Position numbers and translations under genes: made by a program. The notes under the pieces are model-generated. The model saw nothing but the letters and a program-made list of their open reading frames with translations, had not been told where the DNA came from and ran no database searches. A stretch of 64,000 bases of DNA from an uncultured Chloroflexia bacterium (GTDB taxonomy: Bacteria > Chloroflexota > Limnocylindria > Limnocylindrales > CSP1-4): contig CAVYIM010000003.1 of NCBI GenBank assembly GCA_963768655.1, forward strand, positions 256,001 through 320,000, given 5' to 3'. Positions 8,707-49,052 of the stretch are shown here, in pieces (the first letter of the stretch is position 1; each line of letters opens with the position of its first letter).

Positions 8707-8783
8707 GCCCCCATCGTCTAGAGGCCTAGGACACGACCCTTTCAAGGTTGAGATCAGCGGTTCGAATCCGCTTGGGGGTACCA
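8707..8783 (+). tRNA. tRNA-Glu (anticodon TTC)
   Basis: Acceptor GCCCCCA/TGGGGGT; anticodon stem CGACC/GGTTG with loop CT-TTC-AA; T-loop GGTTCGAATCC; encoded CCA. Confidence 0.97.
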
Positions 8784-8834
8784 AGCCCGCGCTCGGCGCA
8801 TCGACCCTGGATCTGCCCCTTCCTGCCCGCGCGT

Positions 8835-8983
8835 CCTTCAGCGTGAGATCAGGGCTCCAAGCCCGGTGACGTTGCCGATCTCGACGCGCCGGGGCTCTCC
8901 GTGGGGACACGGGCACCCCAGGCAGGCTCTCCATCGCCCTGGCGTAGTACGCGAGCCCGCAGAACGAGCCCCTTGGGGCACCA
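8835..8983. other. Decayed att-like sites: a tRNA-like left half joined to a right arm (8835-8894), and a shortened left arm joined to a tRNA-3'-like end (8931-8983)
   Basis: TGAGATCAG-N10-CC has the same spacing as in the tRNA and is followed by N12-GATCTCGACGCG. Then GGCGTAGTACGCGAG...CCCCTTGGGGCACCA. Confidence 0.55.
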
Positions 8984-9041
8984 GCCGCAGATTCGACGCA
9001 CTACACTCGCAACTCTCGGAGCCTGGAGGGAGGGAACGTCG

Positions 9042-9482
9042 ATGGCCCGGCTCGTGTTCGTGGTCCTGATCGCGATCAGTCTCGCTGGGTGCGGCAGTAG
9101 TGGAGTGCCGACCCGCACTCCCTACCCGCTGCCGTCTGGAGCGCTTGCTGTCGCCCTGCCGACGCAGCCGCCCGCCACGACCCCTATTCCATCGGGCGGT
9201 TTTGCGTGTCCGCTCGTTGGCCCCGACCACGTCGCAGTCGTCTGGGACAGGGCGGCACACGCGATCTCGTTCACCTTCGATCTCTGGGGCGAGAACGCAC
9301 AGGCGACGACGATCCTCTGGCCGCGCGGCTTCTCCGCCCGCGAGTACAAAGGACGGCTTGAACTCGTGGCGCCTGACGGCTCGGTCGTCGCCCGCGACGG
9401 CGAGGCCGTCCCGAACGTGATCGGCGACGACCCAGCACACGTTTGCATGGTCGATGGCGTGCTGTACCAACCGGCGGGCTGA
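9042..9482 (+). CDS. Putative lipoprotein, copy 1
   Basis: GGAGGG RBS; MARLVFVVLIAISLAGC lipobox; WPRGFSA...LVAPDGSVVARDGE. Confidence 0.8.
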   Translation: MARLVFVVLIAISLAGCGSSGVPTRTPYPLPSGALAVALPTQPPATTPIPSGGFACPLVGPDHVAVVWDRAAHAISFTFDLWGENAQATTILWPRGFSAREYKGRLELVAPDGSVVARDGEAVPNVIGDDPAHVCMVDGVLYQPAG

Positions 9483-9536
9483 GAGGGCAAGGCGCACTGC
9501 CGGGGCAGCAACTGGACTGCCTCACGAAGGCAGCGC

Positions 9537-47300: not shown

Positions 47301-47885
47301 ACCCCAGCAGGCCAGAGTGCCGTCGGTCCTGATGGCGCAGGTGTGGCGATAGCCGGCGCTGACCGCGGTGAAGGTCCCGGACGGCGTGGGCGACTCGCCC
47401 CAGGAGTTGTCCCCCCAGCAGGCCAGCGTGCCGTTCGTCCTGATGGCGCAGGTGTGCCAGTAGCCGGCGCTCACAGCGATGAAGGTGCCGGTCGGCGGGG
47501 TGGCCTGGCCGTACTCGTTCCAGCCCCAGCAGGCCAGCGTGCCGTCGGTCTTGATGGCGCAGGTGTGGTAGTCGCCGGCGCTCACAGCGATGAAGGTGCC
47601 AGTCGGCGGGCTGGCCTGGCCGTCGTCGTTGTCGCCCCAGCAAGCCAGCGTGCCGTCGGTCTTGATGGCGCAGGTGTGGAGGGCACCGGCGGAGAGGGCC
47701 GCTCCGCTGGATGTGGCAACCGAGGTCTCGGACTGGCCCAGGGTTATGCCGTGCGCAGCCTGGGCGGCAGGCACAAGTGGCGGCGTCAGCCCGACTCCGA
47801 GCAGACCAAGGACCAGGGCCAGGGCGGTCCCGCCCATGGCTGCGGCTCTGCGTGCCCGACGATCCCCAGACGAGAGCAGCTTCAC
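44337..47885 (-). CDS. Secreted RCC1-repeat protein with two Ig-like domains and three C-terminal PxRxLDSR...FDVTGYF modules
   Basis: About 14 repeats of [35 protein letters not shown] before GTG 47885. Confidence 0.92.
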
Positions 47886-48222
47886 CCGACCCGCTCCTTT
47901 CCGTTGAGGCGGCGTTCGCATCCCCCAGTGCGAGATCGGGCTGACGGGCCCCATCGTTGTCCGGAAGCTGCGACACGATCGTCATGTTCGGTCGGCGGGC
48001 CATTCCTCCAGGCCGGGCCGTGCCGGACAACGCGGATACTACCCCCGAAGGTAGGCAATGGCCATGGTCGGGGTCTCGCCACCCGTGCGGCTGGCCCGGG
48101 CGCGCCCGAAGCCCCGAGCTTCGGCTGACGCGGGCGGCACTCATTAGTCGATACTGGCGTGGCCGATGCCCAGCTCCCACGAAGTCCACGGTAAGAACGA
48201 GGGCTTGCCGCGCCGTGAGCCT

Positions 48223-48966
48223 GTGGCCGAGGACGCCTTCGGCGCCGCGCAAGAGGTGAGCCGCGCGCTCACAAACGCTCTCGGCGAGGAACCCGCTGCC
48301 GTCTACCTCCACGGCTCCGCCGTCCTGGGCGGCTTTCGCTGGGATCGCAGCGACCTCGACATGCTCGCACTGAGCCGCGCGTCGCTGTCCGACGGCCAGC
48401 TCCGTGAGGCCGTTCGCGCGCTCGACACCCTGACGTACCCGTCGAACGGCCTCGAGCTGAGCCTCCTGACTGCCCGGGAGGGATCGGAGCCCGAGTTTCC
48501 GGCACTGCGGTTTCAGCTCCACAAGACGACCGATGGGCGCGATCGAGCCGGCAAGGCGATCGATGACCGGGCGAGCCGGGGCGACCCCGACCTCGTCCTC
48601 CATCTGGCGGTTTGTCGTGCGAGCGGACTGACCATCCCCGGGCCGCCGCCGCGCTCGATGTTGGCCGCGGTTCCGGAGCCGACCATGCTGTCGGCGATGC
48701 TCGACGAGATCCGCTGGGCCCGCGAGCACGCTCCGCTGGAATACCTGGTTCTGACGGCCGCTCGGGTATGGCTCTTCGCAAAGACGCATCGGATCTCGTT
48801 GAAGATCGAGGCCGGCGAGTGGGCCGCGCGACGTTACGCGGAGCCGGCCATCATCGAGCGGGCGCTCGCCCTGCAGCGCGGGTCGGAGGCCGAGATCGAG
48901 CGAGATGCAGCGGTTCGCCTGGCAGACGAGGTCGAACGTCTGAACGCGCCCGCGTCGCCGGCCTGA
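48223..48966 (+). CDS. AadA-like nucleotidyltransferase (DUF4111-type C-terminus)
   Basis: VYLHGSAVLGGF...RSDLDML; D.DL.L; YLVLTAAR.W......SL KIEAGEWA; start uncertain (ORF opens at 48166). Confidence 0.8.
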   Translation: MAEDAFGAAQEVSRALTNALGEEPAAVYLHGSAVLGGFRWDRSDLDMLALSRASLSDGQLREAVRALDTLTYPSNGLELSLLTAREGSEPEFPALRFQLHKTTDGRDRAGKAIDDRASRGDPDLVLHLAVCRASGLTIPGPPPRSMLAAVPEPTMLSAMLDEIRWAREHAPLEYLVLTAARVWLFAKTHRISLKIEAGEWAARRYAEPAIIERALALQRGSEAEIERDAAVRLADEVERLNAPASPA

Positions 48967-48968
48967 TC

Positions 48969-49052
48969 CGGCGTCGAGCGCTGGCACTCGCGAATCCGTT
49001 CGTGGGCGCTCCGTCAGACCCGTGCGGCACCCGATCGCCCAGCCGCGACGCG
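48969..49052. other. Diverged complete copy of the att-like site; likely right end of the accessory zone
   Basis: GGCGTCGAGCGCTGGCACTCGCGAATCCG-TTCGTGGGCGCTCCGTCAGAC(21 nt)-CC-GTGCGGCACCCGATC...CGCGACGCG. Confidence 0.65.

Follow-up and report, generated by a model that had tools for sequence, protein, structure and literature searches.

Large serine recombinases (LSRs) bind two inverted half-sites and exchange arms at a central dinucleotide whose asymmetry fixes orientation. In the composite islands of staphylococcal cassette chromosome (SCC) elements, an LSR inserts at the 3' end of one conserved gene, giving tandem units that are each bounded by sites, some of them without a recombinase. 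The available excerpts of two sources describe a 40-kb island of three SCC elements including PsiSCC (10.1101/336396) and the integration of SCC elements at rlmH (PMC13739063). Integration by serine recombinases at tRNA genes is called rare in excerpts of a third source, which names integrative and conjugative elements of actinomycetes (AICEs) from Mycobacterium at tRNA-Leu and phiRSM1 at tRNA-Ser (PMC3218068). Excerpts of a fourth state that mycobacteriophage serine integrases do not use tRNA genes, and describe BPs-type phages with integration-dependent immunity, in which attP lies in the 3' end of the repressor gene and integration changes the C-terminus of the protein (PMC9262239). Here we analysed a stretch of 64,000 nucleotides (hereafter, the window) from an uncultured Limnocylindrales bacterium (contig CAVYIM010000003.1, positions 256,001 to 320,000), in which a tRNA-Glu(UUC) gene is accompanied by recurring att-like sites.

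The arms of these sites were named P (left), R (right), B (left half of the tRNA gene), t3' (acceptor 3' end of the tRNA) and P' (an element's own copy of t3'), and a site is written as its two joined arms, such as P-R. We consider it probable that serial LSR recombination at a single CC dinucleotide built the array; the sites would be att sites of lineage-specific integrative elements that target the T-loop/acceptor boundary of tRNA-Glu(UUC), surviving in the window as an orphan relic. SCC and SCCmec islands, with their Ccr LSRs, appear to be the closest analogue in mechanism, though not in membership: both would have an LSR, units stacked in tandem at one gene's 3' end and units without the enzyme. 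By contrast with SCC, the target here is a tRNA gene rather than rlmH. Units often comprise one gene each, with a median spacing of about 1.1 kb; four arm types occur, with a palindromic B-R among the forms; attP lies within the 3' end of the recombinase gene itself; and the host is an uncultivated Chloroflexota lineage. With the AICEs and phiRSM1 the system shares a serine recombinase that targets a tRNA gene 3' end, although the tRNA and the phylum differ and arrays of enzyme-less cassettes are not described for those elements in the excerpts of the source (PMC3218068). In BPs-type phages, as excerpted, a repressor gene is changed and the integrase is a tyrosine recombinase (PMC9262239), whereas here the gene concerned is that of the recombinase. 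Among the matches listed in literature searches, arrays of single-gene cassettes bounded by serine-recombinase sites returned only ordinary integron papers, and integrases in Limnocylindria returned no such system.

The genome that contains the window (G000, a 3.37-Mb assembly of 9 contigs, 88.6% complete) was analysed together with a comparison set of 51 genomes of the genus and 16 genomes of the neighbouring family. Most of the genomes compared are draft metagenome bins that are mutually related and not independent. Gene models are codon-usage calls made in the present analysis, and E-values for left arms come from an nhmmer profile of the arm unless stated otherwise. The tRNA gene and the sites of the window are as follows.

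8707-8783, plus strand: intact tRNA-Glu(UUC) gene (ARAGORN; Rfam tRNA, 58.7 bits)
8835-8894, plus strand: hybrid B-R, a tRNA-Glu-like left half, GCGTGAGATCAGGGCTCCAAGCCC, with R, ..CCGATCTCGACGCGCC; a near-palindrome (direct reading)
8931-8985, plus strand: P with an internal deletion, with the tRNA acceptor fragment CCTTGGGGCACCAG (nhmmer E 3.6e-3; direct reading)
9537-9628, plus strand: full site P-R, junction between 9597 and 9598 (nhmmer E 5.5e-13)
10417-10487, plus strand: hybrid P-t3', joined at the CC at 10472-10473 to the genome's own tRNA-Glu 3' end (nhmmer E 4.1e-16; sequence)
10472-11209, plus strand: 738-nt direct copy, 99% identical, of 8768-9502, the native flank 3' of the tRNA (blastn; repeat families D7 and D10)
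34104-34196, plus strand: full site P-R, junction between 34160 and 34161 (nhmmer E 1.4e-17; sequence)
36541-36570, plus strand: R only, without P on its left, GATGGCGTTCCTGATCTCGGCGAGAC (direct reading)
37657-37682, plus strand: distal P only, GTAGTGGCGAGCCCTCGTGAATCCGT (direct reading)
48965-49052, plus strand: diverged, marginal P-R-like copy (E 8.8e-4; 75% over 56 nt; repeat families D8, D11, D12 and D17)

The tRNA gene is the window's only one, and its orthologue is present in 50 of the 51 genus genomes. Its left half, B, reads ..GAGATCAGCGGTTCGAATCC and its right half, t3', reads GCTTGGGGGTACCA. P is a conserved 57-nt arm with the consensus GCGTAGTACGCCAGCCCTCGTGAATCCGTTGGTGGGTGCGCCCTCAAGCCC, found at 9541-9597 (E 5.5e-13), 10417-10473 (E 4.1e-16) and 34104-34160 (E 1.4e-17). 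R comprises N12 and GATCTCGGCGCGAC, ending ..CTGATCTCGGCGCGAC, and starts after P at 9598 and 34161. The R 14-mer alone was not significant (7 matches at up to 2 mismatches, against 3.65 expected), so the significance of the motif rests on the 57-nt arm. B has the form ..GAGATCAG-N10-CC, and the distal part of R, CTGATCTC, is an inverted copy of it; P' is complementary to the final codons of the LSR gene. As read from the sequence, the four half-sites P, t3', B and R are all joined at one CC. By direct reading, each site consists of two half-sites that form an imperfect inverted repeat (half-sites in LSR systems are about 20-25 bp long), with the pairs GTGCGCCCTCAAG-CCCC-CTTGGGGGCAC for P/P' and GAGATCAGGGGCTC..GAGCCTCCTGATCTC for B/R (locus L014 at 7772); the half-sites would be contacted by the recombinase domain and the zinc ribbon.

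From left to right, the window has the tRNA gene, B-R, the deleted P joined to t3', a lipoprotein gene, P-R, a membrane-protein gene, P-t3' and a repeat of the native tRNA flank. The 738-nt copy begins precisely at the CC where GAATCC meets GCTTGGGGGTACCA. It carries duplicates of the B-R hybrid (10539-10598) and of the deleted-P site (10635-10689), and equivalent B-R sites occur in relatives (L014 at 7772, L037 at 6825, L096 at 2847 and L137 at 305). The two full sites are identical at 51 of 52 positions (98%) over 9573-9624 and 34136-34187. The R at 36541-36570 is nearly the same as one in L013 at 12524, and the remnants at 36541-36570 and 37657-37682 bracket a single gene, 36823-37632. An earlier sequence-only reading of the window had claimed a recurring two-armed site, half-sites and remnants at these places, a left arm that joins the tRNA 3' end exactly at the CC at 10472, and a hybrid of a tRNA-like left half with the right arm; all of these stood. 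The diverged copy that it listed at 48969-49052 fared less well. The copy does adjoin a gene (49064-49744) that is a paralogue of the 9659-10303 gene after the site at 9542, but it is marginal and was not recovered at E of at most 0.01 in a later nhmmer profile search.

Comparison of relatives indicated that blocks of sequence end at the sites. Loci L015 (genome G010) and L037 (G041) share flanks of 5.5 kb and 3 kb and have different site-separated genes between them, and the left boundary in L037 is a B-R site. Across 48 loci, whose rows are not independent, 33 of 123 internal ends of high-scoring segment pairs lay within 20 nt of a site; by our own rough estimate, sites with their margins occupy a few per cent of the sequence. 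The concern that breakpoints in relatives might not coincide with the CC was thus not borne out.

The position of the switch was sought among 68 distinct complete sites by comparing arms. Four pairs shared the same right arm (at least 41 nt identical) with left arms only 74-79% identical, the nearest left mismatch being at -3, -8, -8 and -10. In one further pair, the left arms were 95% identical and the right arms differed from +1. Because the four right-sharing pairs and the one left-sharing pair bracket it, the switch should fall in the CC that ends P (positions -2 to 0), and the exchange point appears to lie there. In L096, a tRNA-type T-arm, GGGGTTCGAATCC, is joined to R at the same register, and hybrid junctions with R have only the CC in common with their partners. 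The heart of the earlier proposal, site-specific recombination sites with four interchangeable arms, is upheld, with exchange apparently at the CC; the proposal as a whole is supported in part.

A candidate enzyme was found in relatives. In G006, a 205-aa open reading frame (ORF) lies to the right of a P-t3' site and ends ..EEIVWTPPARPFFERQRECPQGG followed by LSTHPPTDSRTLAYYAEAIGL, its last 18 residues coming from the complement of P. It matched 26 of the 51 genus genomes, and the best matches lie in open frames of about 500-660 aa; the LSR gene models are 487-545 aa long. Pfam returned nothing for the 205-aa fragment itself, the domains appearing only in full-length homologues: all three full-length proteins had Resolvase (PF00239), Recombinase (PF07508) and Zn_ribbon_recom (PF13408) domains above the Pfam cut-offs, which identifies the site-adjacent gene as an LSR. 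Its best matches among phage records were serine integrases, 25-28% identical. By coordinate comparison, an LSR gene or remnant overlaps the orthologous tRNA-Glu 3' end, or lies within 17 nt of it, in 19 of the 51 genomes, always on the opposite strand and reading towards the tRNA. An LSR abutting the same site, which the sequence-only reading had proposed to look for, is therefore present in relatives, though not in G000, and the family does have a cognate recombinase in carrier lineages. Contrary to what had been supposed, the system is not recombinase-free by nature: complete elements carry their own LSR with attP in the 3' end of its gene.

The frame of the LSR gene spans the site. At the LSR-tRNA junctions, ..CCCCTTGGGGGCAC is followed by TCCCGC.., ACCCGC.. 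or GCCCGC.. and LSR codons, which replace the native CA; the tRNA-joined LSR ends ..CPQGDSNP with a stop codon from the tRNA complement, and matches end at residue 187. Where the LSR is joined to P, matches extend to residues 200-201 and the reading frame continues into P. The LSR thus abuts the tRNA as B-P' and abuts P as P-P'; since the frame runs into P at P-P' junctions, attP lies inside the 3' end of the LSR gene, and the C-terminus of the LSR depends on what the CC joins. Intact genes in G019, G062 and G011 end ..CPQG(A/G)L(R/G)TRPLL..LAW(Y/F)(A/V)A, and from protein likeness we read the ..LAW(Y/F)(A/V)A tail as a putative diverged P arm. P-joined LSRs were observed to end ..LAWYAA or ..LAWFVA (L169 6493-8028, L170 4904-6541 and L174 171-1244), as against ..GDSNP in tRNA-joined ones. 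We take the former ends to resemble ssrA-type degradation tags ending AA. We infer a regulatory role for the tail swap, which could be an integration-dependent control of LSR stability.

In G000, three full-length LSR queries gave only a 30-34% identical resolvase domain, on contig C6, and the 205-aa fragment matched just P-encoded tails. A different LSR of 612 aa on contig C7 was considered as the cognate enzyme and rejected, since it has no blastp similarity to the site-adjacent ORF and never occurs on a site-bearing contig in relatives; it tracks the sites loosely (10 of 14 site-bearing genomes, 6 of 37 others). A tyrosine-integrase origin of the site-adjacent ORF was likewise dropped after blastp gave nothing significant. 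C7 has two related modules (35277-37112 and 69054-70697; L020 1275-3113) of 74-79% nucleotide identity, each with a different LSR and a XerC/D-like tyrosine recombinase. The 612-aa LSR has Resolvase, Recombinase and Zn ribbon domains, and the LSR of the second module has an internal TGA. The frame of the first C7 LSR runs about 100 aa into the complement of an AAA+/Mg-chelatase-like gene (..LLMIGPPGSGKTLLAR..; identity by our own reading of the sequence), which suggests that the first module inserted into that gene. Outside the window, G000 has just one P arm, at C7:44724-44811. After it comes a diverged stretch of acceptor-like sequence, and about 4.5 kb separate it from the C7 module's tyrosine recombinase. 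This arm may be an old element's far end, the element belonging to the same backbone family.

The motif is not scattered over the genome. When the four window copies were used as queries against G000, matches were found only in the window and at C7:44724-44791. The P arm occurred in 14 of the 51 genus genomes and in none of the 16 genomes of the neighbouring family. A degenerate 22-mer pattern searched over 185,579 species (one genome each) gave 46 stretches, only 12 of them with a full-length arm, and each of these 12 carries the record title Candidatus Limnocylindrales or Chloroflexi bacterium; the remaining stretches match the pattern alone, at about the level of chance (about 30 by our own rough estimate). 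Metagenome contigs held 58 further sites in 30 loci, and a pattern scan of viral contigs gave 0 matches. As far as such searches reach, the motif is lineage-specific and not the genome-wide repeat that would have spoken against a link with the tRNA.

It is highly improbable that the motif is something other than a recombination site, be it a terminator hairpin, a repeat of the REP type, a small RNA or a small gene (minus-strand ORF MGLRVHPPTDSRGLAYYAEA..). Hairpins are indeed predicted in most copies, a short minus-strand ORF with a Shine-Dalgarno-like AGGAGA occurs at the two full sites, and some between-copy substitutions are synonymous in its frame. However, no start codon is conserved, period-3 is weak (summed entropy 8.2, 6.8 and 5.3 at codon positions 3, 2 and 1 over 9 codons) and the ORF is accounted for as the C-terminal tail of the LSR frame in the P-P' configuration, on which grounds the small-gene reading was rejected. 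The RNA-element reading was rejected because Rfam found no family except tRNA (gathering score over the whole window; E of at most 5 over 8600-10800). An attC-like hairpin was also dropped, the predicted hairpins now being read as inverted half-sites, and arm swapping and block boundaries at the sites are not expected of a terminator.

Arrays were regular in layout and mixed in content. In all 25 loci that hold more than one site, the sites have a single orientation, and junction-to-junction spacing has a median of 1104 nt (45 gaps, 35 of them within 300-2000 nt); in these counts, some array loci represent one population that was sampled a second time. Sequence conservation of the left arm is about 80% over 57 nt. 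Between the sites, on both strands, lie mutually unrelated genes, among them flavodoxin, DinB, PEMT, MFS with YkoP, DUF3800, DUF6869 and membrane proteins or lipoproteins without a Pfam family. In all, 69 distinct sites were classed, a 70th entry having been dropped as a script artefact. The right-arm classes below were assigned by regular expressions, and several of the 16 sites classed as other look t3'- or P'-like by eye.

29 of 69 distinct sites: P followed by an acceptor-like t3', that is, a direct repeat of the tRNA 3' end at the far boundary
18 of 69 distinct sites: P followed by R
6 of 69 distinct sites: P followed by t3' running into a conserved ..CACTCCCGCTGTCTTTCGAAGAACGG.. flank (P')
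16 of 69 distinct sites: P followed by a right side that the patterns left unclassed (other)

The t3' arms come in both tRNA-Glu alleles of the genus, CCTTGGGGGCACCA and GCTTGGGGGTACCA. The G006 array (L014) has the order B-R, P-R, P-R, P-R, P-P', followed by an LSR remnant, and its P-R sites have distinct proximal sequences; this order is what would be expected if P-R circles inserted one by one at the B end. Three public runs, from as many studies, have contigs with a copy of the window cassette that is about 93% identical (9606-10377 in X3; 9606-10388 in X4 and X7). In X3 the copy is preceded by a B-type arm (CTGAGATCAGGGGCCCAAGCCC joined to GATGGCGG) where the window has P, and a loose end before 9606 reads CTGAGATCAGGGGCCCAAGCCCGATGGCGG. 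The data from these runs are contigs, not reads, and no circular junctions are readable from them; a joint in X3 that goes back from 10474 to 9608, with 9 letters between, was considered as a circle and rejected as being rather another P-R site of a relative. None of the public sequencing runs scanned for words of the window held more than 0.13 of the sampled words.

From these observations the following course of events may be proposed. The LSR would cut at the CC and swap arms. A complete element with P-P' would enter the tRNA gene (B-t3') to give B-P' and P-t3', with the tRNA regenerated minus only the encoded CCA. Small enzyme-less P-R circles might then be inserted in trans at a B-R or B-t3' docking site, and successive insertions at the B end, each restoring B-R, would yield arrays of the order B-R, (P-R)n, P-t3'. 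Such an integron-like step would require the LSR to accept hybrid sites. In the window, the 1.7-kb repeat may be the product of one exchange between a P site and the tRNA, the P-t3' junction being as expected from exchange of a P site with the tRNA on a sister chromosome or an excised circle. With the enzyme presumably lost in G000, the array would be a frozen relic, and it is most likely inert. A second tRNA-Glu(UUC) of different sequence lies at C4:828114-828191 of G000, so loss of the window copy by insertion of a P-R circle would be tolerable. We infer the mobilisation of enzyme-less cassettes in trans from array architecture; the earlier claim of accretion driven in trans was unsupported as written.

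Several observations weigh against serial LSR recombination as the origin of the array. The evidence for it is comparative throughout. Canonical LSRs recombine attP with attB only, and we know of no citable tested precedent for the proposed reactions between hybrid sites (P-R with B-R). Some junctions are imprecise, as in L016 at 6419, which is without R, and 16 of the 69 sites fell outside the patterns. Sites within about 17 kb downstream of the orthologous tRNA-Glu were found only in G000 and G048, and no full-length site lay within that distance in the 15 other loci fetched. An open frame of at least 500 aa at the LSR match was present in only 3 of 14 site-bearing genomes (G010, G019 and G061), which fits relics as well as it fits mobilisation in trans. 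A tyrosine recombinase gene is likewise part of complete elements (L168 11763-12743; its homologue L020 5214-6185 is confirmed by Pfam), and P' and the tRNA have a 14-nt core in common, CCCCTTGGGGGCAC, a feature typical of tyrosine integrases that use tRNA genes.

The last two points raise the question of whether the XerC/D-like tyrosine recombinase of the elements is the catalyst, acting on the core shared by P' and the tRNA 3' end with the LSR as a mere neighbour. The gene is conserved in elements (L168, L169, L170 and C7, with Pfam run on the C7 copy), and excerpts of a phage study describe tRNA genes as used by tyrosine, not serine, integrases of mycobacteriophages (PMC9262239). We nevertheless regard this explanation as improbable. 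Junctions with R share only the CC rather than an identical overlap of 6-8 bp: in L096, GGGGTTCGAATCC is followed by GTCGGC.., as against ..CC followed by CCTTGG in the tRNA and ..AAGCCC at the end of P. In 19 genomes it is the LSR gene that abuts the site, the LSR reading frame extends across the site, and the two inverted-repeat pairs of half-sites (P/P' and B/R) are arranged as in LSR sites. In L168 the tyrosine recombinase gene lies about 8.7 kb from the tRNA and the gene adjoining the tRNA is the LSR, which is not the arrangement of a tRNA-targeting island whose tyrosine integrase gene adjoins one of its ends. When the genome's recombinases were compared with the 48 array loci by tblastn, none lay beside a site except short fragments (L042 and L097), and a full gene was about 7 kb from a site in L043. 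The L097 fragment (661-944) consists of the first ~60 codons of the element's tyrosine recombinase fused to the last ~45 nt of the LSR gene, beside a P arm.

A further explanation accepts the att sites and holds the arrays to be mere debris, left by tandem LSR elements at tRNA-Glu-type targets whose backbones were deleted, with no mobilisation of cassettes in trans. Truncated LSR genes do adjoin sites in L014, L037, L039, L097 and L114, and by comparison with L168 the L097 fusion, at codon ~57 of the tyrosine recombinase, is an apparent deletion of about 8.5 kb that fuses the LSR end to this gene; the imprecision of certain junctions and the want of an intact LSR in most site-bearing genomes agree with this view. 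We consider it unlikely all the same. Backbone families of L168 (DUF3987, ParB/MT-A70 and Mrr) were matched by 0 of 20 scanned array-locus proteins, which belong to unrelated accessory families or none. The repeated, distinct P-R sites in the order seen in L014 fit repeated insertion of P-R circles, not random deletion, and one and the same cassette stands behind P in the window and behind B in run X3.

The window has the following genes near the sites.

9042-9482, plus strand: lipoprotein-like gene, 146 aa, no Pfam family, between two sites (ORF model)
9659-10303, minus strand: cassette gene, a 214-aa membrane protein without a Pfam family, with R on its left and P on its right (ORF model; Pfam)
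35110-36435, plus strand: Mutator/IS256-family transposase, not part of the att system (PF00872, E 3.3e-27)

The lipoprotein-like gene has a second copy at 10748-11188. Three paralogous membrane proteins of 214-226 aa without a Pfam family are encoded at 9659-10303, 49064-49744 and 49769-50437, all on the minus strand, and two of them have a P-R-type site just downstream. The transposase gene sits just left of the R-only remnant at 36541-36570. Among the 40 window ORFs scanned, Pfam found no site-specific recombinase and PF00589 had no match; the sequence-only reading's statement that the window has no intact recombinase holds for site-specific enzymes.

The same reading had treated 8707-49052 as one array, which proved too broad: sites are absent from 10.7 to 34.1 kb, and the stretch therefore does not form a single continuous cassette array. 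In G009 (L035), the homologue of the window from 54104 onward begins no more than about 120 nt past the tRNA-Glu gene, and in other relatives 6-15 kb lie between the two; window 8.8-54.1 kb is therefore a variable region at a hot spot, and only parts of it are site-bounded. The site-free part shares genes with array-adjacent regions of relatives, namely a CpaF-like gene (G006) and an M24 peptidase (G012). A 599-aa protein encoded at 13173-14972 on the minus strand combines a T2SSE ATPase domain (E 9.5e-63) with a C-terminal L-PSP endoribonuclease (E 9.1e-16), and its orthologue adjoins the array in G006:C13. At 21000-21224, on the plus strand, a 74-aa ORF encodes a response-regulator receiver domain reduced to its C-terminal half; in relatives (L014 and L019), an array is bordered by an intact regulator/kinase pair. 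Elsewhere, a long 12-nt periodic repeat (39560-40027) lies inside a 503-aa ORF (39400-40911), and 111-nt repeats (46140-47786) lie inside an RCC1-repeat protein (44337-47837).

Integrons invite comparison as well. Like integrons and clusters of attC sites lacking integron-integrases (CALINs), these loci have same-orientation arrays of sites between unrelated, mostly single genes, with arrays that have no recombinase nearby, and the proposed order of a docking site followed by P-R repeats would parallel attI followed by attC. Unlike integrons, they have a serine recombinase rather than the IntI tyrosine recombinase, a conserved arm of 57 nt in place of attC palindromes that are conserved in structure only, cassette genes on either strand with no evident common promoter, and complete elements that carry their own recombinase. 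Neither an IntI enzyme adjoining the array, with its attI and Pc promoter, nor structure-conserved attC sites with co-oriented cassette genes were found, and the system is not an integron by any defining feature tested. It may, as we tentatively suggest, still be a serine-recombinase counterpart of the integron, in which B-R or tRNA-Glu would dock P-R minicircles of 0.6-2 kb, captured and reshuffled in trans by a resident or incoming LSR that would switch its tail (GLRAHPPTDSRGLAYYAEA or ..LAWYAA against ..GDSNP) between the excised and integrated states.

For the window alone, an orphan relic of this kind would explain the 45-kb variable region downstream of tRNA-Glu. With its short sites, four arm types, tRNA target and recombinase gene spanning attP, the system is well suited to bench work, and it allows tests of how an LSR handles hybrid sites and of the role of the tail swap in directionality or stability. 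If cassettes are mobilised in trans, gene-cassette capture would have an independent origin with a second class of recombinase, in a phylum that is known chiefly through metagenomes.

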